A DNA stretch of 11,234 nucleotides, from UHGV virus genome UHGV-0140033, one strand, 5' to 3'. The notes below the pieces were generated by a model. The model was not told the origin of the DNA, did no database searches, and saw nothing but the letters and a program-made list of their open reading frames with translations. Positions 1-11,234 of the stretch are shown here, one piece after another. The position numbers were made by a program, and so were the translations under genes. Origin of the DNA: a virus. Each line of letters starts with the position of its first letter. Positions within the stretch are counted from its first letter, which is position 1.

Positions 1-145
1 TCATCCATATCACCACGTCAAAGGGTGACAGCAGGCTCATAAGACGCCCCAGCGTGGCCAGAGTGCGTTCACTGCGTATTTTCATGAAAGGAGATCACTC
101 AATAACTTCCATCGAGATCGGGTAATAACATTTGAACAGATCGCT

Positions 146-211
146 GAATAACATCGATGGAGATCACTTTTGACTCATTTTGTTATTCAGTGATCTCCAT
201 CAATGTTATTG
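146..211. repeat. Near-perfect 22-bp inverted repeat pair (146-167 aataacatcgatggagatcact / 190-211 agtgatctccatcaatgttatt) with a third GGAGATCACT copy at 89-100
   Basis: Read directly from sequence; one mismatch over 22 bp, 22-bp spacer. Candidate transposase-binding terminal repeats or an operator. Confidence 0.5.
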
Positions 212-265
212 GAACTTCACAGGTGTGTTGATCTGTATCTTTTGCCATTCCGGTAAAGGATACCT

Positions 266-1359
266 ATGCCAACAGTTCCAATTTCTATGAGAAAACTTAA
301 AGAAATTCTTAGGCTTAAATACGGTGTTGGACTCAGCCATCGACAAATTGGTCGTAGTCTTGCAATCTCCCCTTCCGTTGTATCCAGATATGCTAATCGG
401 GCGGCTCAACTTGGCATAAAGCAGTGGCCCTTACCTACAGGATGGGATGATACAAAACTAAAACATGCGTTCCTTCAGACCCAGGTTAAGATGAAGAAGC
501 ACTCTCTGCCTGACTGGGCTACAGTACACCGGGAACTGCGTAATAAATGCGTGACGCTGCAGCTACTCTGGGAAGAATACTGTGAGCGTAATCCAGGCGG
601 TTTTTACAGTTATAACCATTACTGCCGGATGTACCGTGAATGGCTCAAAACCACTTCACCATCAATGCGTCAGGTACATAAAGCTGGCGAAAAACTTTTC
701 GTTGATTACTGTGGACCTACCGTTGGCGTTACCGACCCTGAGACCGGAGAAATAAGAACTGCTCAGGTCATCGTAGCTGTTCTCGGGGCATCAAGTTACA
801 CATGGGCAGAGGCCACCTGGTCTCAGCAGCTTGAAGACTGGGTGATGAGTCATGTTCGCTGCTTCCAGTGGTTGGGTGGCGTTCCTGAACTTGTTGTTCC
901 GGACAATCTGAAAAGCGCCACATCCAGGGCATGTAAGTATGATCCTGACGTTAACCCTACCTACCAGCAGATGCTTGAGCATTATAATGTCGCAGTTTTG
1001 CCTGCGCGGCCACGTAAACCGAAAGATAAAGCCAAAGCTGAAGTTGGCGTTCAGGTTGTTGAACGCTGGATCATGGCCCGAATCAGGCATGAGATCTTCT
1101 ACAGCCTTGCATCGCTTAATCAGCGCATTCGGGAGTTGCTGGAAAGACTGAATAACAAAATAATGCAGAAGTTGGGTTATTCACGTGCAGAACTCTTCAT
1201 CCAGCTTGATAAACCCGCACTGAAGCCTCTTCCTGAAGCCAGTTACAGTTACACCCTGGTGAAGAAAGTCAGAGTTCATGCCGATTACCACGTGGAAATC
1301 GACAAACATTACTACTCGGTTCCATGTTCGCTGTTAGGCCAGCAACTGGAAGCATGGAT
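266..1359 (+). pseudogene. istA: IS21-family transposase IstA, C-terminally truncated by IS629 insertion
   Basis: ATG at 266 with AAAGGA SD. N-terminal HTH region; DDE-type motifs (FVDYCGPT, VVPDNLKS, KPKDKAKAE); HYNV..PARPRKPKDKAKAE resembles the IS21 IstA HYNF.PRACRPRRARTKGKVE block from memory. The 380-aa track ORF runs on into the IS629 left inverted repeat, so the last ~16 codons are not istA. Confidence 0.75.
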
Positions 1360-1385
1360 TGAACCGCCCCGGAAATCCTGGAGAC
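1360..1385. repeat. IS629-like left terminal inverted repeat
   Basis: tgaaccgccccggaaatcctggagac; reverse complement closely matches 2644-2669. Confidence 0.75.
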
Positions 1386-1413
1386 TAAACTTCCTGAGAA
1401 AGAGGTAAACAGG

Positions 1414-1740
1414 ATGACTAAAAATACTCGTTTTTCCCCCGAAGTCCGTCAGCGGGCGATTCGAATGGTTCTGGAAAGTCAGAGCGAATATGACTCACAA
1501 TGGGCGACAATTTGTTCCATTGCTCCAAAGATTGGCTGTACGCCGGAGACTCTGCGTGTCTGGGTTCGCCAGCATGAGCGGGATACCGGGGGCGGTGATG
1601 GAGGGCTCACCACCGCTGAACGTCAGCGTCTGAAAGAGCTGGAACGTGAAAATCGTGAACTGCGCCGCAGTAACGATATCCTTCGCCAGGCTTCCGCTTA
1701 TTTTGCGAAGGCGGAGTTCGACCGCCTCTGGAAAAAATGA
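1414..1740 (+). CDS. IS3-family transposase OrfA (HTH/leucine-zipper DNA-binding subunit), 108 aa
   Basis: ATG at 1414 with GAGG SD; [19 protein letters not shown]... is typical IS3-family OrfA with a C-terminal coiled-coil ([13 protein letters not shown]); stop overlaps orfB start. Confidence 0.9.
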
Positions 1741-2627
1741 TGCCACTGCTGGATAAGCTGCGTGAGCAGTACGGGGTCGGACCGGTATGCAGCGAACTGC
1801 ATATTGCCCCGTCAACGTATTACCATTGTCAGCAACAGCGACATCATCCGGATAAACGCAGTGCCCGTGCGCAGCACGACGACTGGCTGAAGAGAGAGAT
1901 ACAGCGCGTATACGATGAAAATCATCAGGTGTACGGTGTGCGTAAAGTCTGGCGTCAGTTGTTACGGGAAGGAATCAGGGTGGCCAGATGTACAGTGGCA
2001 CGTCTCATGGCGGTTATGGGACTTGCCGGTGTTCTCCGGGGTAAAAAGGTCCGTACGACCATCAGCCGGAAAGCCGTTGCCGCAGGCGACCGCGTAAACC
2101 GTCAGTTCGTGGCAGAACGACCTGACCAGCTGTGGGTGGCTGATTTTACTTACGTCAGCACATGGCGGGGCTTCGTCTATGTGGCGTTCATCATTGATGT
2201 GTTTGCCGGATACATCGTGGGGTGGCGGGTCTCATCGTCCATGGAAACGACATTCGTGCTGGATGCACTGGAGCAGGCGTTATGGGCCCGTCGACCGTCC
2301 GGCACGGTCCATCACAGTGATAAAGGTTCTCAGTATGTATCGCTGGCCTACACACAGCGGCTTAAGGAAGCCGGATTACTGGCATCAACAGGAAGTACAG
2401 GCGACTCGTATGACAACGCGATGGCGGAGAGCATCAATGGTCTTTACAAAGCGGAGGTAATACACCGTAAGAGCTGGAAAAACCGTGCAGAAGTGGAACT
2501 GGCCACACTCACGTGGGTGGACTGGTATAACAATCGACGATTGCTGGAAAGGCTGGGCCATACTCCTCCGGCAGAAGCAGAAAAAGCTTATTATGCTTCC
2601 ATCGGAAACGATGATCTGGCAGCCTGA
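1737..2627 (+). CDS. IS3-family transposase OrfB (DDE catalytic subunit), 296 aa; probably expressed as an OrfAB fusion by -1 frameshifting
   Basis: DDE motifs including the IS3-family signature [18 protein letters not shown]; A6 run at 1732-1737 in the orfA/orfB overlap (ATGA). Confidence 0.9.
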
Positions 2628-2643
2628 GTTCACAGATAAAACA

Positions 2644-2669
2644 CTCTCCAGGAAACCCGGGGCGGTTCA
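2644..2669. repeat. IS629-like right terminal inverted repeat
   Basis: ctctccaggaaacccggggcggttca; imperfect inverse of 1360-1385. Confidence 0.75.
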
Positions 2670-3096
2670 GATAATCGGCGTGGCAGATGACATATTTTTT
2701 ATCTTTGCTCACCAGTTCGATGATTAACGGAAGTTCATCTGCTTTATGGGCAAGAGCTTTAGCCAGAATTTCTTTGTCGTAATCGAGATTAAAGAACCAG
2801 CCACCGCCATTAAGCAGCCAGTGATTGACGTTTCCACGCTCTGATAAGCCATCAATCATCATTTGCTCATGGTTTCCACGTACAGCTCTGAACCAGGGGA
2901 ATGTGATTAATTCCAGGCATTCGACGTTCTCTGTACCGCGATCGACCAAATCGCCAACCGAGATAAGCAGGTCTTTTTTGGTGTCGAATCCTATCGTCTC
3001 CAGTTTTTTCATCAGGTTCGTGTAGCATCCGTGCAGATCGCCAACTACCCAAATATTTCGGTATTTGCTGCCATCAATTCTTTCGTAATAGCGCAT
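2670..3096 (-). pseudogene. Lambda-type Ser/Thr protein phosphatase (ninI/orf221 homolog), 3' end truncated by IS629 insertion (first ~143 codons remain)
   Basis: [25 protein letters not shown]...GDLVDRG...GNHE metallophosphatase motifs; near-identical to lambda PPase as I recall it up to ...KYVICHADY, where the reading frame enters the IS right end. True start is ATG at 3096, not the track start at 3171. Confidence 0.8.
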
Positions 3097-3280
3097 CTCT
3101 TTCACTCCATCCGCGATGAACCATGAGAACGTCGTTGACGATGGCGTGCATTTTCCCGTCTTTATCATCAACGTATTTTCTGACCGTACCGCGACTACAT
3201 TTCAGTCTGCGTGCTACTTCTGTCTGGTTTCCGTATGCTTCAACGAGCATGTCTGGAATGGTTTTTACTGAGAACGTCAT
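3074..3280 (-). CDS. ninH: NinH-like protein, 68 aa
   Basis: Position between ninG and phosphatase as in lambda; start overlaps ninG stop (ATGA); sequence matches lambda NinH by recollection. Confidence 0.8.
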
Positions 3281-3888
3281 GCGGCCTCACTTCTGCTATT
3301 TCGCAGGTCTTTGAGTTTCTGTTGGTACTCTGCCTTGATCGCCTTGCACTCTTCGACAGTCCAGCGATGGCGGTTATGGTTTGATTCGATTTCGTCTACT
3401 GCTTCCTGCCCGATGCGATTAATCAGTTCGACGCGATACGGAACGAGATTTCCGCTTTTATGCTGGTTGCACACCACGCATTGCTTGTGAATATTGCGTT
3501 CATCAAATCGGAGTTGAGGTGCCGCAGCAGTTGTCCGGTAATGTCCGGCATCCCACTGAGCAGACGTGAGCGTTCCGCACGAGATACATGGTAAGTCGCG
3601 GTCTCTTTCTCTGATGAAGGCGTTTACGGCTTGTTGGGCTTGTTTAATCCAGTAACTGCGGGGCTTTAAGGCGAGTTTTCGAATCTTAAGTTTATCTTTC
3701 TGTTTCTGCTCCTCTCGTCGTCGTTTCTTCTCTGCTGCTTTTTCCGCTTTTTCGCGTTCTTTGCTTCGTCGTTCGAGTGCTATCTTGGTTCCACACTCTG
3801 GAGAGCACCACCACTGATTAGCGAATGCAGGGTGAAACCATTCCCGGCATTCATCGTTTTTACATCGTCTTCGCGCTGGTTTAGCCAT
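3277..3888 (-). CDS. ninG: NinG (Rap-like recombination-associated) protein, 203 aa
   Basis: Cys-rich N-terminus ([10 protein letters not shown]...CSPEC), basic KR-rich linker, C-terminal CISC...CVVCNQHK; length and position match lambda NinG. Confidence 0.85.
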
Positions 3889-4157
3889 TATGGTTCGCTC
3901 CAGTAATTCTCAATTGCAGCAGCCATTCTCTGCATCCACTCTGCCAGCTTTAACGCGGCTTCTCTTTCAGAACCACATTTAGGGAAATCCTTCATTTCCA
4001 TGCTGGCCTTATATGTTCTGAATGCCAGGTCTCCGGTAATAACCAGCTCCTGATCAAGCACAGAGCGTTTATTCCGGTGTTGAACGTAATAGACAGATTC
4101 AGTCCGCATTTCTTCTCTGTCTTTTTTGAAGGAAATAAGCTCAGAGAAATCACTCAT
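3888..4157 (-). CDS. Hypothetical nin-region protein, 89 aa (no lambda counterpart at this position)
   Basis: ATG at 4157 with GAGGAAG SD; stop overlaps ninG start; tightly packed in the operon. No family recognised. Confidence 0.55.
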
Positions 4158-4362
4158 CGTCTTCTTCCTCGTACATTGAGCTATTCGGATCGCTCATCAG
4201 TTCTGCGCAGCAGTGCTCACATACGTGAACTTCCAGCACATGCAGCTTCTGACCGCAGTTAGCGCACGTTAAAGCTCGCTCGACGCTTTCTTGTTCGTAA
4301 CTTCGATTTTGGTCAATCACCTTGTTTTCCTCGCACGATGTCTTAGCCACCGGATATCCCAC
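4150..4362 (-). CDS. ninF: NinF-like zinc-ribbon protein (~58-70 aa; start uncertain, track start is GTG)
   Basis: [34 protein letters not shown] matches lambda NinF by recollection; CxxC...CxxCC motif. No in-frame ATG upstream, so the start may be GTG at 4362 or 4350. Confidence 0.65.
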
Positions 4363-4499
4363 AGGTGAGCCGTGTAGTTGAAGGTTTTTACGTCAGATTC
4401 TTTTGGGATTGGCTTGCGTTTATTTCTGGAGCGTTTCGTTGGAAGGTATTTGCAGTTTTCGCAGATGATGTCGGTGATACTTCGTCGCTGTCGTCTCAT
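4317..4499 (-). CDS. ninE: NinE-like protein, 60 aa
   Basis: [20 protein letters not shown]... matches lambda NinE by recollection; ATG at 4499 overlaps the upstream stop (ATGA). The 90-aa track ORF is an upstream extension. Confidence 0.75.
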
Positions 4500-5023
4500 G
4501 CTGCCCTCCTGACGCCCTGCCCGATCGCCATCAATGCCGCTTTGGATACGGTAGTAAACATCCGTCGAGGACTGATGAACGGTCGCCAAATCAGCAGCAT
4601 GGAGCCTTTGCTGTTTCCCTTCTTCTCCAGCCCTGTCGATGGTTCGATAAAATTAATCCGTCCATCAGTGATAATACGAACTTCGTCAACACTCTCCAGA
4701 GCCTTGCTGAACCATCCGACAGACATATCCTCTGGCACAAGCATCACTACCGTCTGTCGCTGTTGTATGCACTGCTCAGCGGCTTTTTCCACCCACGGCC
4801 TGATATTGCTGTACGGTGGGTTATTCCAGATTGCACCGTGGCTTATCCACTCAGAATTGAGTGCGTCGTCGGCCTCAGTTAGCCAGTGAGCGCACAGAGC
4901 GTTTTTGTCGCTCGCTGCCGAATCCAGCCAGAATCCAAACTCAATATCCAGTGCATCAAAAAGCCAAAGCGGCGTTTGCCAGCAGTCCTTGTCGTGTGCT
5001 GGCGTATTTGATTTGATAGTCAT
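4496..5023 (-). CDS. Phage-type DNA N6-adenine methyltransferase (Dam-like); alternative start ATG at 5050
   Basis: NPPY catalytic motif (WNNPPYSN); phage Dam family. ATG at 5023 overlaps ninB stop (ATGA) and is preceded by AAGGGAAGG; ATG at 5050 is also in frame. Confidence 0.75.
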
Positions 5024-5466
5024 GCAGCCTTCCCTTTTCGTTGTGACCATTCATACTCTCTCCGGGAGTCATCACTCCATCGCACGTTGCGCTCTGAGCC
5101 GAACCAGAACATGATTTCGATAAGCTCAGTCATGTTGGCCTTTCGCATTTTGCTGGTACGCACGCCAAGCATGACAACGCCACCGTCGATACCAGGCGCA
5201 CTTCTTTGCTCCATTTTTTTGGTCTTAAGCCACAGGGCAGTGAACAGATCTTTCCAGTCCTCCGGCGCAAGTCTCTCTCCATGCCAAAGCACCTGACGCG
5301 ATACGTCCTGCAATAACGCCCACATAAGGCGGTTTTGAGGATTGCTCCGCTTTGGTTCTTTAATGTGGACTTCGTGAGGTGACTTGTCGTCGATCGGAAG
5401 TGAGAGTATTGCGTCTATGGCGTTGTTTCTGATTGCTTCGTTGCGAAGCATGTATATTTGCTTCAT
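5020..5466 (-). CDS. ninB: NinB (Orf-family recombination mediator), ~148 aa
   Basis: DVSRQV.WHG...W...FTA...WSD..R.EYEW...G.AA conserved blocks shared with lambda NinB; ATG at 5466 with GAGGTG SD (track start at 5472 is GTG). Confidence 0.85.
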   Translation of the reverse strand: MKQIYMLRNEAIRNNAIDAILSLPIDDKSPHEVHIKEPKRSNPQNRLMWALLQDVSRQVLWHGERLAPEDWKDLFTALWLKTKKMEQRSAPGIDGGVVMLGVRTSKMRKANMTELIEIMFWFGSERNVRWSDDSRREYEWSQRKGKAA

Positions 5467-5473
5467 TGTCACC

Positions 5474-5680
5474 TCAACTCACAAAACGCCACGCCATTTT
5501 TGCTACAGCGACAGGCGCAACACCGATAATCACCCACAGGAGAATGCTACCGAAAAGCACACCCACCAGGTCTTTACCTTCGCCTACCAACCGGACAAAA
5601 CAGCCAGCAACCACAATGAACGTCGCCACCATCCACAGAGCACCGAGAAGCCTCAATGCAGAGAAAATCAACTCAACCAC
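5474..5680 (-). CDS. Small hydrophobic protein (68 aa, 2 predicted TM helices) in the ren/ninA slot between replication genes and ninB
   Basis: GTG start preceded by GGGGGAGAG SD; stop 2 nt before ninB start. Composition is strongly hydrophobic, so chance ORF is not excluded. Confidence 0.4.
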   Translation of the reverse strand: MVELIFSALRLLGALWMVATFIVVAGCFVRLVGEGKDLVGVLFGSILLWVIIGVAPVAVAKMAWRFVS

Positions 5681-5695
5681 GATTTACTCTCCCCC

Positions 5696-5727
5696 AAATA
5701 AAAAGGCCTGCGATTACCAGCAGGCCT
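5696..5727 (-). terminator. Intrinsic terminator on the minus strand (tR2-like position, between helicase gene and nin region)
   Basis: Perfect 8-bp GC-rich stem (5704-5711 aggcctgc / 5720-5727 gcaggcct), 8-nt loop, followed on the minus strand by TTTTATTT. Confidence 0.55.
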
Positions 5728-5752
5728 GTTACAAGCTCAGTGATGTAGATGG

Positions 5753-7129
5753 TCATACGTCCGCCCCTTGTGCATATCGTCTGCCACGCGCAGCAGGCGC
5801 ATTTGATGCTGTGCAAATCTGTCTGGCTTCATCCTGGTCACATGCAACAAAGTGTCCGTTACAGAATCGCTGGTAAACCGTACCAAGCGAGCCAAAACGG
5901 TTTTTCGTCACGATGATTTCAGCAAATGGCGCGGCGCTACTGTTCTCGTCATATACCGCTTCCCGATAGAGCATGATGATTGAGTCTGCGTCCTGTTCAA
6001 TGCTTCCTGAATCACGCAAATCTGCGTTTGTCGGGCGTTTGTTTGGTCGCTTCTCAACATCGCGCGAAAGCTGACTCAGGGAGATAACAGGCGTTTTTAG
6101 GTCTTTCGCCATCGCCTTCAGGCTTCCGGAGATGTGAGCAATTGCAAGGTCGTTGCGGTCTGCTTTCGGCTTCTCAATCAGGCCAAGATAATCCGCCATG
6201 ATGAGTGACAGGTTTGGGTTTTCCTGTTTGTGCCGTTCTGCGATTGAGCGTATTTCTTCGACCGATAACCGCGAGGCATCGACTACCCATACATCCAAAT
6301 CTGCAAGCTGACTCATGCCGTTAGCAACACGTGCCCAGCCCTCGTCATCCATCGATGCAGGATTTCGCAGCACGCTAACCGACATCCTCCCGGCGTTGGC
6401 AATACTTCGCTCTGCAATCTGCAATGCGCTCATTTCCATTGAGAAAATCAATACTCCGCGCCGGACGTCAGAACCAGGAATAACGCGGCTTGCAACGCCT
6501 TCGGCAATCTTCAGCGCCAGTTCGGTTTTCCCCATACCAGGACGAGCAGCGATTATCACCAGGTCTTCCGCGTTCATCCCTCCGGTGATGGCATCAAGTT
6601 CTTCGATTCCGGTCTTCAGGGTATCGGACTCTTCTCCGTTCCTCAGACGCCTGTCAAGCGTGTCAGTGTAGTCAGTAATGATTTCCCCTAACCGTACAGG
6701 TTTTACCTCGTCACGGGGCTTTCTGATGGCTGAAAGACGCTTTACAAGTTCATCCATCGCCTGACTCGATGCGTCGATGGTTCCGCTCTGAATTGGTTCA
6801 CGCATTTCATCCATGATTTCCAGCACCAGACGGCGGTGATAGTTATCCGCGACCATTCCGGCATATCCCTTCAGGTTTGCGGCACTCGGGCAGTTTTTGC
6901 TGGTCATCAGGATTGACGTGAAATGCTCCTCTCCGCACGCCTCGGCAACCATCAGCGCGTCGATTAGGTTTCTGTTTCTCGCCTGCTTGCGGATAACCTC
7001 GAAGGCTTTCCGGTAGAGCGGAATTGAAAACGCTTCCGGCTCAAGCGTTGCCAGAACGTCACTGGCAGTTGGTGTTAATCCACCAATCAGCAGACCGCCG
7101 ATAACGCTCGCTTCGATATCCTGTCTCAT
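5753..7129 (-). CDS. Replicative DNA helicase, DnaB family (P22 gene 12-like), 458 aa
   Basis: DnaB N-terminal domain; Walker [17 protein letters not shown]; RecA-like C-terminal domain; start overlaps upstream stop (ATGA). Confidence 0.9.
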
Positions 7130-7947
7130 GCAATCCCCCTGTCTGCAAACTTCCCTTCACGAACTCCCGTTAACGAATCTTCTCTCAGCAGGTAATCAAA
7201 ATCGGCCGTCCAGCCCGTGTCGTTGTCTCCGAAGTAAAACGGCTTGGCCTGATGCACAAACGCCCTGACATACGCTCTGAAACCGTCCACGTTTGGCGTT
7301 TTCAGTTGCGGGATGATTTTCTTCAGGCGGCGTTTGCGTTTCTCGTTGACCGCAACAGCGTGTGGAAGTCTGTCACCGACTTCGGTGTTGTAGGCGTTCA
7401 GGAAGGATTCGTAGTCGATTCGTTCTGCCTTGCGACGTTCAGGTTTAACCTGCCCATCGCCGCCCCCGTTAGGGGGTAAGGGGGTATTTGTATTTATTGT
7501 CTTTTGTATATTGTCTTTTGTGTTTAGCTGACTTGGCTTATACCCATTAGCCGACTTGGCTAATGTTTTATTAGCTGTTTTGGCTAATGTTAAGCTGTCC
7601 TGGCTAATCCACTGCGAAACCACCTTGTTCACTCCGATTTTCACGCCATCAGCAATGAGGAATTTACGCTCAATAAGCTGGCGCTTGGCAGCGCAAACAT
7701 GAGTGTGATGAATACCTGTCATGGCTGCTATCTGCGTGTTTGTGAGTCGATCCATCGGCTTATTGAATCCGTATGTCTTGCGCATGATAGCGAGCATCAC
7801 CTTCAACTGCCGGACGGTTAAATCAGCCATCAGCAGACTGTCGGTAATCTCGTTAGCAACGCGCATGAAACCATCTTCGGTGTCTGCCACGCGATGCTCC
7901 ACGACCTCCAGTTGAGGCCTGTAATCAGCTAACTTAACGACGCCCAT
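7126..7947 (-). CDS. O: Replication initiation protein O (lambda O N-terminal domain / P22 gene 18-like), 273 aa; contains the origin
   Basis: ADLT.RQ.KV.LAI.RKTYG.NKPMDR motif shared with lambda O N-terminus; strong AGGAG SD; iterons lie inside the coding sequence as in lambdoid O genes. Confidence 0.85.
7484..7522. other. AT-rich DNA-unwinding region of ori, adjacent to the iterons
   Basis: gtatttgtatttattgtcttttgtatattgtcttttgtg with tandem attgtcttttgt repeats, flanked by a G-rich palindrome cccccgttaggggg (7465-7478). Confidence 0.65.
7524..7607. repeat. Phage replication origin iterons: four ~17-bp repeats (TTAGCTGACTTGGCTTA / TTAGCCGACTTGGCTAA / TTAGCTGTTTTGGCTAA / TAAGCTGTCCTGGCTAA) at 20-24 bp spacing
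   Basis: Read directly from sequence; each has internal dyad symmetry (TTAGC...GCTAA); located mid-gene in O. Confidence 0.8.
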
Positions 7948-8095
7948 GTTTCACTCCTGCTTTGGCTAGTCTGTAAACACCAACAAGGCGCTCTGCGAAC
8001 GCCCTGTTATTTGCTGCGGCTACCACTAATCCCTCAGGTGAATCAGGGTGTCGAATCTCTTCTTTTTCCTGGTATTTCTTACGACGTTTTGTCAT
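7934..8095 (-). CDS. Small basic hypothetical protein (53 aa) between cII and O
   Basis: ATG at 8095 with AGGAG SD; track start at 8140 is TTG. Lys/Arg-rich N-terminus. No family recognised. Confidence 0.4.
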   Translation of the reverse strand: MTKRRKKYQEKEEIRHPDSPEGLVVAAANNRAFAERLVGVYRLAKAGVKHGRR

Positions 8096-8129
8096 AATTA
8101 CTCCTGTGGATTGATCCAGTCTTTCTACA

Positions 8130-8408
8130 TCAGGCCTCAAAACTGTTGCAGCAGTCTTGAGGCTTTTCTTTTGTCAGCACCATGGCTACTTTCTTTGCCA
8201 GCTCTGCTAATTCCTCGTCTTCAACACCCCACTCCAGCACAGCCAGAAGCATGGCCATCTTTGGGATAAAGCTGTCTTTCCATCGCGAAATTTGCGATTC
8301 ATTAATCCCTAATGCATCAGCAACCTTTCGCTGACCACGTACAGCAATTCGATTCAGGATGTTGCTTGTAATTGCATTCGCTTTCTTGCGAGTACTTGTA
8401 AGTTGCAT
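8130..8408 (-). CDS. cII: CII-like transcriptional activator, 92 aa
   Basis: SQISRWK..FIPK.AMLLAVLEWGV matches the lambda CII core; upstream AAGGAAATACTTACATATG is identical to the lambda cII translation-initiation region as I recall it. The 121-aa track ORF is an upstream extension. Confidence 0.85.
   Translation of the reverse strand: MQLTSTRKKANAITSNILNRIAVRGQRKVADALGINESQISRWKDSFIPKMAMLLAVLEWGVEDEELAELAKKVAMVLTKEKPQDCCNSFEA
8386..8399 (+). promoter_or_regulatory. Candidate CII-binding site / pRE -35 region (TTGC-N6-TTGT)
   Basis: TTGCgagtacTTGT within the first cII codons on the opposite strand, resembling the lambda TTGC-N6-TTGC CII site; imperfect second half-site. Confidence 0.3.
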
Positions 8409-8465
8409 ATGTAAGTATTTCCTTAACAAATAAGAAGTTATGCGCATCAAATTATGCGCGTTGTA

Positions 8466-8510
8466 TTCCCGCATTTCGGCGGGAATGATGACCATGACTG
8501 TTAAAGAGCG
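8466..8510 (-). promoter_or_regulatory. nutR-like antitermination site: boxA (CGCTCTTTA, 8510-8502) and boxB hairpin (8485-8466)
   Basis: Minus strand reads CGCTCTTTAACAG immediately after the cro stop, then 13 nt, then a 7-bp stem TTCCCGC/GCGGGAA with purine-rich loop CGAAAT; same arrangement as lambda nutR. Confidence 0.55.
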
Positions 8511-8516
8511 GTGTTA

Positions 8517-8711
8517 CTATTTGTTTTTCTTGTTGCTTGGGAAAGGACGAACTTCCTCTCCAATCACACTGCCATCAGGCTTTACCGTAACCATGATGTT
8601 ACGGCCTGCCAGAATGGCCTTGCTGATAGCGCACTGGATTACACCAAAGTCACTGGCTGCTTTAGCCTGTCCATGGATTTTGGCGTAATCGGCAAGTGTC
8701 ATTCGAATCAT
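8517..8711 (-). CDS. cro: Cro-like repressor, 64 aa
   Basis: [15 protein letters not shown]...AGR.I...DGSV..EEV.PFPSNKK aligns with lambda Cro (about half identical by eye); ATG at 8711 with GGAG SD. The track start at 8717 is GTG. Confidence 0.85.
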
Positions 8712-8741
8712 ATGCACTCTCCGTTATTAACCATGAACAAA

Positions 8742-8806
8742 GAATACTACAGGTATTCAAAGCAATCAATACTCAGGGTATTTTTAGTTTAAGTACCTTA
8801 GCTATT
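8742..8806. promoter_or_regulatory. OR operator region: three operator sites (AATAC-N5-GTATT at 8743-8757 and 8768-8782; degenerate AGTAC-N5-CTATT at 8792-8806), containing the divergent pR/pRM promoters
   Basis: Palindromes read directly; centre-to-centre spacing 24-25 bp as in lambda OR1-3. Possible pR -10 TAGTAT (minus, 8749-8744) and pRM -10 TAGAAT (8806-8811). Confidence 0.7.
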
Positions 8807-8817
8807 AGAATTAAGCT

Positions 8818-9502
8818 ATGGAAAATAAAAAATCACTGACGACAGAACAGCTCGAAGACGCTAAGCGGCTTAAGGCTTTGTATGAGTCAAAAAAGAAAGA
8901 ATTGGGAATAACCCAATACTCAATCGCTGATGAACTGGGTATCACCCAAGGAGCGGTAGGGCATTATCTTAATGGCAGAAACGCGTTTGTTGCAAGTCTC
9001 AATTGCTGATTTTTGCCAGTCAATTGCTGCCAAGGTTGCAGAACAGGCAGAAAGCCTTAAGAGCGATGCCAACGTAAGGTATGCAGGGGAATACAGAGCA
9101 GGAAAGAGGTATCCGGTGTTAAGCAGTATCCAGGCTGGCTCGTGGTGTGAAGCATGCGAACCATACACCATTAAAGACATAGATGTTTGGCTTGAGTCTG
9201 ACGCGCATATTCAAGGTAATGCGTTCTGGCTTAAAGTGGAAGGTGATTCAATGACGGCACCGGTTGGGTTAAGCATTCCAGAGGGAACATTCGTTCTTTT
9301 CGATACCGGAAGGGAGGCGATCAACGGCAGCTTGGTCATAGCAAAACTTTCTGACTCTAACGAAGCAACATTCAAGAAGCTGATAATCGACGGCGGAAAT
9401 AAATACCTCAAGGGACTTAATCCTGCATGGCCTCTCGTGCCAATCAATGGAAACTGCAAGATTATAGGCGTTGCAATTGAGACAAAACTAAGGCTGGTTT
9501 GA
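8818..9502 (+). pseudogene. cI: cI-type repressor disrupted by a +1 frameshift: N-terminal HTH domain 8818-9009, C-terminal S24 LexA-like peptidase domain continues in another frame to 9502
   Basis: N-terminal [33 protein letters not shown] resembles the lambda cI N-terminus; C-terminal frame has AG..WLKVEGDSMTAP...ATFKKL S24 motifs. Frame changes between 8960 and 9009, most simply at the TTT run 8986-8988. Confidence 0.75.
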
Positions 9503-9519
9503 TCACGCAAGGGGCGATT

Positions 9520-9888
9520 ATGGTTGGAACCGCTATAGCAAGCTTTTTTGGGATGTTGGCAATCTCGACAATTTACGGCTTAGCGCATGCTTTTATTGCG
9601 AAATCTCTATCAGAAAAAATAAGCCAGGCTTGGGCGCATAGATCAGCTCGTTTCATGATTCTGGTGATCATAGCAATACAAGGGATATCTGCATTTATCC
9701 TCTATGGATCAAGCTTATACCTATTGTATCAAGGCGCGACATTTACGCCTTACACCAGTGATTACGGAACTCTATACGATGGTAGTGAAGACATCACTGT
9801 GGCTTGGATCGTCTTTGGTTTATCTATGGCCGTGTCTGTTGTAGCAGACATCATTAAGGTAATTCTCGTCTTAACCTTCGCTGACTAA
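9520..9888 (+). CDS. Uncharacterised integral membrane protein (122 aa, ~3 TM helices) cotranscribed downstream of cI in the rex slot
   Basis: ATG at 9520, 17 nt after the cI stop, with G-rich SD (track start 9499 is TTG); three long hydrophobic segments; no similarity to lambda RexB recognised. Confidence 0.65.
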   Translation: MVGTAIASFFGMLAISTIYGLAHAFIAKSLSEKISQAWAHRSARFMILVIIAIQGISAFILYGSSLYLLYQGATFTPYTSDYGTLYDGSEDITVAWIVFGLSMAVSVVADIIKVILVLTFAD

Positions 9889-9942
9889 CCTATAATCCCG
9901 GCAGCAATAGCTATCGGGATCCACTTCACATATCCCGCATAA

Positions 9943-10143
9943 AAAGCACTGAACAAGCAGACACCGAAACAAATAGAAGTCATGCGCTGTCTGGCGCAAG
10001 GCATGCCGAACAAAATGATCGCCTACAAAATGGGCATCAGCACATCAACCGTCAAAGTCCATCTGAACCGTATTTACATGCGTTTGAACATCACCAACCG
10101 ATTGCAGGCGTTGTTGTGGCTGAACGAACACAACATGTTCTGA
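9943..10143 (+). pseudogene. 3' fragment of a LuxR/NarL(FixJ)-family response regulator gene: C-terminal HTH domain only
   Basis: LNKQTPKQIEVMRCLAQGMPNKMIAYKMGISTSTVKVHLNRIYMRLNITNRLQALLW has the LuxR-type HTH signature and resembles the NarL C-terminus. In-frame TAA at 9940-9942 sits where the receiver domain should be. Confidence 0.55.
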
Positions 10144-10346
10144 CGCGTTTCGAAAAACCGTTCGACGTCGAATGGCTGTTCGATTCAGCCGTCGCGGACG
10201 AAGCGGAACAATACGTTTTCCACCCGAAACAAACATTGCGCAGAAATCCGGACGGATCGCTGACCGTCAAATTCCGCGCGGGCGGACGGCTGGAAATGGA
10301 TTGGCATCTGTACACTTGGGGAAAGCACGTCAAAGTCGTCAAAGCG
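10143..10346 (+). other. Possible gene fragment resembling the C-terminal (WCX-like) region of a WYL-domain transcriptional regulator; no start and no stop of its own
   Basis: Frame translation ...FHPKQTLRRNPDGSLTVKFRAGGRLEMDWHLYTWGKHVKVV resembles WYL-regulator C-termini (HP.Q...DGS...EL.W.L.WG..V.V). It runs directly into the antisense of rho. Confidence 0.25.
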
Positions 10347-11234
10347 TTACGAATTCATCGCTTCGAAAAAGTCGTGATTGTTTTTCGACTGTTTCAGCTT
10401 TTCCATCAGGAACTCCATCGCGTCGGCGGGTCCCATCGGCATCAGCACGCGGCGCAACACCCACATTTTAGGCAAAGTATTTTTATCCACCAACAATTCC
10501 TCATTACGCGTACCCGATTTTGTAATGTCGATAGCGGGGAAAATACGTTTATCAGAAACTTTGCGATCCAAAATAATTTCGCTGTTGCCTGTGCCTTTGA
10601 ACTCTTCGAAAATCACTTCGTCCATTCGAGAGCCCGTTTCAACCAAAGCCGTTGCGATAATTGTCAGCGAACCGCCCTCCTCTACATTACGAGCAGCACC
10701 AAAAAAGCGTTTAGGCTTTTGCAGAGCGTTGGCATCCACACCACCTGTTAACACTTTACCCGATGAAGGAATAACGGTGTTATAAGCACGAGCTAAACGC
10801 GTAATACTGTCCAGCAAAATCACAACGTCTTGCTTGTGTTCGACAAGGCGCTTAGCCTTTTCAATCACCATTTCAGCGACTTGAATATGGCGGCTTGCGG
10901 GCTCGTCAAACGTTGAAGAGATAACCTCACCTTGAATCGAGCGTTTCATATCCGTCACTTCCTCGGGGCGCTCATCAATCAACAAAACAATCAAGTGAAT
11001 CTCTGGGTGATTAGCTGTAATCGCGTGAGCGATGTTTTTCATCATGACGGTTTTACCTGTTCGTGGAGGCGCAACAATCATTCCGCGTTGACCTTTACCT
11101 TGCGGGCAAATCAAATCGATAATGCGGTCGGTTAAATCTTTGCCTTTTTCACCGCTTGGCAGCTCGTAATCCATCTTCAGCTTTTCATCTGGATACGTTG
11201 GCGTTAAGTTATCAAAGTTGACCCGATAGCGCAA
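10347..11234 (-). CDS. rho: Transcription termination factor Rho, C-terminal ~295 codons (5' end beyond the window)
   Basis: Walker [34 protein letters not shown], RecA-like ATPase domain ending ...[13 protein letters not shown] at 10347-10349. Clearly divergent from E. coli Rho as I recall it (roughly three-quarters identical by eye). Confidence 0.9.

Follow-up and report, generated by a model that had tools for sequence, protein, structure and literature searches.

In the 11,234-nucleotide (nt) stretch of viral DNA UHGV-0140033, here called the window, a small gene named hkaS follows the cI repressor gene and encodes a predicted three-helix inner-membrane protein of 122 amino acids (aa). 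By analogy with known systems, the most likely role of HkaS is superinfection exclusion of the Sie type, in which entry of a phage genome would be blocked at the inner membrane; we give this reading a probability of about 0.4. The gene is best explained as an accessory (moron-type) member of the immunity cassette found in phages of the HK620 type. Precedents exist for such an arrangement. The rexAB genes of lambda, stk of 933W and hex of 434 are cotranscribed with a repressor and exclude other phages (PMC3564112), and bstA of BTP1 has been added to this group, the region between cI and N being described as a mosaic hotspot (PMC8585504). A preliminary description of the sequence had placed the gene in a slot like that of rex, and hkaS indeed lies in the interval between cI and OL, where the literature records exclusion cargo of this kind.

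The reading frame opens with an ATG at 9520 and closes with a TAA at 9886–9888. The cI stop codon (TGA) occupies 9500–9502 and is separated from the hkaS ATG by a 17-nt spacer; position 9503, at which the preliminary description had begun the feature, is the first base after that stop codon. Translation of the open reading frame (ORF) and the sequence of the spacer confirmed the 122 codons and the 17-nt distance given earlier; the spacer contains a Shine-Dalgarno motif, AAGGGG. In all four divergent lineages compared, an AAGGA or AAGGGG motif is found 5–8 nt upstream of the ATG. In the Salmonella lineage an in-frame TAA stands directly before the ATG, and the hkaS start codon is therefore fixed. 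A start at the TTG of 9499, which would give a protein of 129 aa and was chosen by some gene callers (for example in P0001), was rejected because of the same TAA. A hydrophobic antisense ORF (9885–10013, minus strand), convergent with hkaS, was also considered and rejected as a partner gene, since it is absent from the Salmonella loci L002–L004 and also from L006; weak conservation of it was seen in the Hafnia-type lineage (L008 and L010). The GC content of hkaS is 42%, against 45–48% in its neighbours.

Comparison with known phages showed that the region from 8700 to 9975 is more than 99% identical in nucleotide sequence to the immunity region of coliphage HK620, and that the ORF is the hkaS gene of that phage (AAK28867.1; genome AF335538), labelled "unknown" in GenBank. 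The protein is 100% identical to that of phage mEpX2 and differs from the HK620 protein by a single residue (G20 versus V20). Over its whole length (residues 1–122 of 122) it matches PHROG 6534, a family of "unknown function", with an E value of 2.4e-79. The suggestion in the preliminary description that the ORF might be undescribed thus did not hold: hkaS is already in GenBank, and only its function is undescribed. The literature search, which did not extend to the original description of the HK620 genome (Clark et al., 2001), found no functional study of the gene.

Sixteen phage records carry hkaS, and in every one its product is labelled a hypothetical protein. The carriers include HK620, mEpX2, HK630, HK140, HF4s, HZ41, vB_EcoP-611R6, phi296/phi367 and two Stx2c-converting phages; judged by name and taxonomy only, they differ in virion type (for example, the P22-like podovirus HK620 and the Stx2c-converting phages). 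Of the 5426 complete E. coli genomes searched, 146 (about 2.7%) contain the cI-hkaS segment. A word-indexed search of 5.8 billion proteins recovered 12 HkaS clusters with identities as low as 52%; their sources are E. coli, Hafnia paralvei and Salmonella Mbandaka. An exhaustive hidden Markov model search of 1.84 billion cluster representatives returned one full-length cluster, with prophage hosts in E. coli, Salmonella and Hafnia, and one 44-aa fragment. In Pfam, only sub-threshold matches to generic transmembrane (TM) families (Cation_ATPase_C and TssN) were obtained. No match was found in NCBIfam, in PADLOC (at E values up to 10) or among PDB sequences, and fold searches with the structural model returned generic helical bundles only. 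Judged by these searches, the HkaS family is an orphan without relatives of known function.

The position of the gene is highly regular. In the HK620 annotation the order is cI, hkaS, tIMM ("termination of cI transcript"), OL3–OL1 with pL, nutL and N. The preliminary description had suggested a survey of lambdoid prophages; in the loci with homologues that were examined, the gene is next to cI in every case. At all nine divergent loci, whose homologues are 52–83% identical, hkaS lies 17–20 nt past an HK620-type repressor gene with HTH_3 and Peptidase_S24 domains and before N, while gene content differs between loci in the replication region and further left of N. Among IMG/VR loci whose homologue is 97% identical or more, 80 of 80 hkaS copies are intact, and wherever upstream sequence was available (79 of 79 loci) a full-length cI ends 17–19 nt before hkaS. 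No RexA-like gene was detected in the window or in the nine related loci. The gene comes straight after cI, in agreement with the earlier remark that a RexA partner is missing.

Several features suggest that cI and hkaS would form one transcription unit in an intact prophage. A promoter and terminator scan found no such site between the two genes, though the scan was insensitive and missed the known pR as well. Past the hkaS stop codon, the segment 9886–9975 folds with −15.3 kcal/mol (z = −2.6) and contains a stem-loop that is likely the 3′-end structure of the cI-hkaS transcript. Stable hairpins lie 10–25 nt past the hkaS stop in four of four lineages (z from −2.2 to −4.6; in the other lineages at L002 5381–5421, L006 5383–5412 and L008 1832–1859), and their sequences are unrelated. 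None of them has a clear U-run, and the annotated tIMM of HK620 is further downstream. The hairpin fits a conserved transcript end and may act as a terminator.

The phage records in which cI is at least 99% identical are precisely the 16 that carry hkaS. Among the next relatives of cI (58–71% identity), the slot holds unrelated cargo or no ORF: an unrelated protein of 200 aa, whose match to a tetratricopeptide repeat is weak and below threshold, in Erwinia phage 49 (L095 2530–3132), an unannotated 120-aa ORF without a long hydrophobic stretch in Cronobacter ENT39118 (L096 2621–2983), a 97-aa hypothetical protein in E. coli phage Fostie (L097 2664–2957) and no ORF in Serratia OS31 (L094 2512–3046). 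In phage 434, whose cI is 52% identical, the slot is occupied by the unrelated hex gene. By sequence comparison, then, the slot between cI and OL is a site of variable cargo, hkaS seems confined to a single cI clade, and it looks as if the gene was acquired at the base of the HK620-immunity clade. The strict linkage is probably kept because recombination inside the OL–OR cassette would part the repressor from its operators. Lower GC content, variable cargo in sister cI lineages and evolution faster than that of cI together argue for the accessory status of hkaS.

We examined the evolutionary rate of hkaS relative to its neighbours. Across lineages, identity is 80–95% for cI and 79–95% for Cro, and 52–82% for HkaS. 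For the pair of HK620 and the Hafnia-type locus, synonymous divergence (dS) is about equal in hkaS and cI (0.67 against 0.73), whereas nonsynonymous divergence (dN) is 0.097 in hkaS and 0.024 in cI, giving dN/dS ratios (omega) of 0.146 and 0.033, respectively. The gene thus diverges 4–5 times faster than cI at equal synonymous divergence. A second hkaS pair gave an omega of 0.22 and deeper pairs were saturated, so that the dN/dS range is 0.14–0.22. Down to 52% identity, the length of HkaS remains constant at 122 codons with no insertion or deletion. Since no such change has occurred in 122 codons despite saturated synonymous sites, hkaS is clearly constrained, and its fixed length across lineages combined with the dN/dS values argues that it is not a chance reading frame. 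These sequence comparisons clearly place hkaS under purifying selection, yet far less constrained than cI. Within the E. coli clade, variable codons of hkaS comprise 21 nonsynonymous and 16 synonymous cases, against 5 and 33 in cI (Fisher p = 9e-5). The changes in E. coli hkaS are mostly conservative singletons in the helices, and the sole common dimorphism is TV/SM at residues 93–94, at the periplasmic edge of the third TM helix (TM3). Against several hundred intact member sequences, a few database copies (P0006, P0007 and P0009) have a frameshifted N-terminus in which the first approximately 30 residues are replaced, which indicates occasional decay or sequencing errors.

Hydropathy and structure prediction agree with the earlier estimate of about three TM helices. 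The 19-residue Kyte-Doolittle mean exceeds 1.6 in three segments (about 1–27, 42–70 and 90–122), and an AlphaFold2 model built from a 7-sequence alignment (mean predicted local distance difference test score, pLDDT, 92.1; predicted template modelling score, pTM, 0.79) contains long helices at 2–29, 41–73 and 89–121, with a short helix at 31–38 and a small beta-hairpin at about 78–86. Hessa sums, crude and unweighted, are about +1.7, −0.2 and +2.2 kcal/mol for TM1, TM2 and TM3; TM2 is strongly hydrophobic, and TM1 and TM3 are marginal. Because the charges in loop 1 are basic (K28, K33, R41 and R44) and those in loop 2 acidic (D81, D87, E90 and D91), the protein is predicted to have a periplasmic N-terminus and a cytoplasmic C-terminus, with loop 1 on the cytoplasmic side and loop 2 on the periplasmic side. 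In this predicted arrangement, the periplasmic loop is an acidic, tyrosine-rich hairpin, and the cytoplasmic loop is basic and conserved. The best-kept regions are loop 1, with LSxKISQAWxHRxARF, where 9 of 17 positions do not vary, and the C-terminal tail, with ILVLTFAD, where 8 of 9 do not. The periplasmic end of TM2, YLLYQGATFxPY, is also among the best-conserved parts, and conservation is lowest at the tip of the periplasmic hairpin. Four polar residues within the helices are invariant: Q54, S106, D110 and K113.

We then compared HkaS with known exclusion and membrane proteins. RexB of lambda resembles it in being a small polytopic membrane protein encoded downstream of cI inside the immunity region. 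It differs in having a RexA partner and four predicted helices, while HkaS has three and no RexA. The hhalign probability for the two families is 0.7%, and Pfam and PADLOC were negative for such a relationship. For SieB of P22 and lambda, the hhalign probability is 0.1% and there is no Pfam match; the putative SieB-type gene of HK620 is a different one, hkaP. T4 Imm (Pfam Imm_superinfect) was not among the Pfam matches at E ≤ 1 for seven HkaS members, and no pairwise comparison was made. The earlier statement that the protein shows no similarity to RexB, SieB or Imm agrees with these results.

The best functional analogue of HkaS may be SieA of P22, the likeness being one of mechanism and not of family (hhalign probability 0.3%). 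SieA is a small inner-membrane protein expressed from the prophage, with about three TM helices, no soluble domain and a conserved motif on the cytoplasmic side, features that are predicted for HkaS as well. That motif, FxRYPxEAxxFNK (defined in PMC10883804), is absent from HkaS, and SieA is longer (162–164 aa against 122 aa). In P22-like prophages the sieA gene lies between genes 16 (ejection protein) and 9 (tailspike) and has its own promoter, whereas hkaS is in the immunity region within the cI operon.

In genomic arrangement, Hex of phage 434 is close: a single accessory gene right after a related cI, cotranscribed from pRM. Hex, a "repressor protection protein", gives heterologous exclusion and stabilises the lysogen. 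It consists of one N-terminal hydrophobic segment and a soluble domain, whereas HkaS is nearly all membrane helix, and the hhalign probability is 0.08%. BstA of BTP1 and Stk of 933W are also encoded downstream of a repressor and presumed to share its promoter, but both are large, soluble, non-membrane abortive-infection proteins with no similarity to HkaS. The topology predicted for HkaS (three TM helices, N-out/C-in, with a net positive loop 1 and a net negative loop 2) would fit class I holins. Such holins, however, typically end in charged residues and are encoded in the lysis cassette, whereas HkaS ends in ILVLTFAD and is encoded in the immunity region; the hhalign probability against the P22 holin gp13 is 0.45%, and no holin family was matched in Pfam. 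According to its annotation, the cIII gene of HK620 (L001 6049–6189) is cut short by a stop codon within it, from which arose the idea that loop 1 of HkaS might stand in for CIII. By eye, loop 1 of HkaS could be read as a CIII-like amphipathic helix that inhibits FtsH (SLxE+I[S/T]), and this candidate was rejected at a profile-profile probability of 0.13%. HkaS is, by sequence, a member of PHROG 6534 outside the RexB, SieA, SieB, Imm, Hex, CIII and holin families.

On the basis of these observations, we propose the following role. In an intact prophage, hkaS would be carried on the cI transcripts that start at pRM and, at establishment, at pRE, and would be translated from its own Shine-Dalgarno sequence, so that HkaS would be made continuously in lysogens. 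There it would hinder an incoming phage genome at the cytoplasmic membrane in the manner of P22 SieA, HK97 gp15 and T4 Imm. It could do so by binding the ejection proteins of the phage, or an inner-membrane protein of the host of which phages make use, and infected cells would survive. An exclusion role is suggested by the presumed expression from the cI operon in lysogens, by the precedents in this slot (rexAB, stk, hex and bstA) and by the type of protein, which consists almost wholly of membrane helix and resembles single-component inner-membrane exclusion proteins. There is no room in it for a cytoplasmic sensor domain, and a passive block to entry is therefore favoured over abortive infection by a sensor and effector. 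Several observations weigh against exclusion. HkaS resembles none of the exclusion proteins with which it was compared (RexB, SieA, SieB, Hex; PADLOC), either in sequence or in fold. Its best-conserved surfaces are cytoplasmic and its periplasmic loop is the least conserved, while an entry blocker might need a conserved periplasmic face; an arms race could, on the other hand, account for the variability of that loop. The gene is found alike with virion modules of podoviruses, siphoviruses and Stx phages, and therefore is not matched to one injection machinery. Its linkage to cI is explained by trapping between OL and OR without functional coupling, and its amino-acid polymorphism within E. coli fits weak constraint.

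The conservation of the cytoplasmic parts leads to a different reading, possible in our view though rather improbable, in which HkaS takes no part in defence and modulates lysogeny or host physiology through its cytoplasmic loop and C-terminal tail, acting for example on FtsH/HflKC, on RecA-dependent cleavage of cI or on a transporter, and would thereby make lysogeny more stable or change the physiology of the envelope. Both regions (9 of 17 residues invariant in loop 1, 8 of 9 in the tail) and the occurrence of hkaS with only one cI clade would fit it, as would the annotation of pRE in HK620, by which hkaS would also be made during establishment. Known systems offer parallels: Hex of 434, in the same slot, blocks RecA-stimulated cleavage of the repressor and thereby stabilises lysogens, and RexA is reported, as cited in PMC12315714, to affect induction. 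HkaS, however, resembles neither Hex nor CIII (0.13% for loop 1 against the CIII helix), any gene situated between OL and OR would be linked to cI anyway, and sister cI lineages do without hkaS. A more specific version appears unlikely, namely that HkaS is a membrane-anchored regulator coupling the state of the envelope to the lysogenic switch of HK620-type phages, with the KISQAW-H-ARF loop and the ILVLTFAD tail binding cI, RecA or FtsH/HflKC and thus adjusting establishment or induction, and with exclusion as a secondary effect, as with 434 Hex.

If HkaS were instead an abortive-infection effector, comparable to a RexB that lacks its RexA or to a holin, it would oligomerise into a pore, or dissipate the membrane potential in some other way, once a superinfecting phage disturbs the membrane, and would so kill the infected cell and protect the clone. 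We regard this as unlikely: neither RexB nor the P22 holin proved to be a homologue, there is neither a RexA-like sensor nor a cytoplasmic domain to sense infection, the ILVLTFAD tail is without the charge typical of holins, and a pore-former made constitutively in lysogens would need a control mechanism, of which none is visible. Least probable, and in our judgement very unlikely, is that hkaS has little or no function and was trapped in the immunity cassette as a hitch-hiker, surviving as a silent relic in this chimeric prophage. Its rate of evolution, 4–5 times that of cI, points in this direction, as do the share of nonsynonymous cases among variable codons (21 of 37, against 5 of 38 in cI; p = 9e-5), the frameshifted N-terminal variants P0006, P0007 and P0009, the narrow taxonomic range and, in the window itself, the broken cI and the loss of OL and pL. 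But the frame is kept at 122 codons to 52% identity with saturated synonymous sites and a dN/dS of 0.14–0.22, the motifs KISQAW-H-ARF, YLLYQGATF and ILVLTFAD are invariant, the Shine-Dalgarno sequence is conserved, all 80 IMG/VR copies are intact and the AlphaFold2 model is confident. Exclusion at the inner membrane remains the role that we prefer.

The window is not an intact prophage, and the features located in it are collected in Table 1. Relative to HK620, cI has suffered a 32-bp deletion, and the resulting frameshift splits it into two ORFs, one with the HTH_3 domain (8818–9009) and one with the Peptidase_S24 domain (8972–9502), as assigned by Pfam. The deletion was present in none of the matches listed among 145 complete E. 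coli genomes, nor in the 79 IMG/VR loci; in the E. coli check, two-piece alignments spanning 112 bases for the 80-base query were taken to mean no deletion. Neither HK620 nor any E. coli genome matches the window past 9975, a point shortly ahead of tIMM and OL, and the sequence beyond is a patchwork of foreign, non-E. coli gene fragments that do not belong to the phage. The 9975/9976 junction has the look of a chimeric assembly or an engineered join, biological decay being also among the readings. At the other end, istA is interrupted by an IS3-family element, which also replaces the C-terminus of a NinI-type phosphatase, as homology to the phage picks up again at about 2670. Neither Q nor the late region is present in the window. 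The split cI and the loss of tIMM, OL and pL past 9975 had been overlooked in the preliminary description. Its claim that hkaS is cotranscribed with cI stands in part: HK620 has a terminator annotated after hkaS, but in the window cI carries a frameshift and what is left of the prophage is a truncated chimera, so that cotranscription with a working cI is not to be taken for granted. Although hkaS itself is intact, its expression in this particular sequence is doubtful, because activation of pRM by cI would be lost, the premature stop in cI invites polarity and the downstream signals are gone.

Table 1. Features located in the window (positions 1 to 11,234). HK620 coordinates were transferred through an identical alignment (window position = L001 position + 5699).
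Feature	Position	Strand	Remarks
istA (IS21-type transposase)	266–1408		interrupted by IS3-family element
IS3-family element, orfA	1414–1740		
IS3-family element, orfB	1737–2627		
NinI-type Ser/Thr phosphatase	2509–3171	−	C-terminus replaced by IS3
cro	8517–8711	−	Pfam Cro, E 3.6e-26; HK620 annotation; other half of the immunity cassette
OR1–OR3 with divergent pR and pRM	8742–8807		coordinates transferred from HK620 annotation; promoter activity presumed
OR1	8742–8758		
OR2	8767–8783		
OR3	8791–8807		
cI (HTH_3 and Peptidase_S24)	8818–9502	+	pseudogene here; 32-bp deletion between 8986 and 8987 relative to HK620
Shine-Dalgarno sequence AAGGGG	9509–9514	+	5 nt before the hkaS ATG; read from the sequence
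hkaS coding sequence	9520–9888	+	122 aa and stop codon; predicted 3-helix inner-membrane protein; from ORF and translation
Stem-loop	9895–9920	+	past the hkaS stop; likely 3′-end structure of the cI-hkaS transcript
Foreign DNA	9976–11234		1.26 kb in place of tIMM, OL, pL and N; non-E. coli gene fragments, no part of the phage
GerE/LuxR HTH C-terminal fragment	9982–10143		Pfam
WCX-domain fragment	10116–10346		
Partial rho	10347–11234	−	best relatives in Alphaproteobacteria, at most 81% aa identity

Genes cotranscribed with lambdoid repressors have repeatedly proved to act in defence or to modulate the lysogenic switch, as the examples of rexAB, stk, hex and bstA show. The hkaS gene is present in laboratory model phages (HK620, mEpX2 and HK630) as well as in Stx2c-converting phages. 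If it acts in exclusion, HkaS would represent a new single-gene family of inner-membrane exclusion proteins, which would bear on host-range work with lysogens of HK620 immunity; should it act on induction, it would matter for how stable Stx prophages are. Being small and self-contained, hkaS is a reasonable and easily tested candidate for a gene that protects lysogens from other phages.

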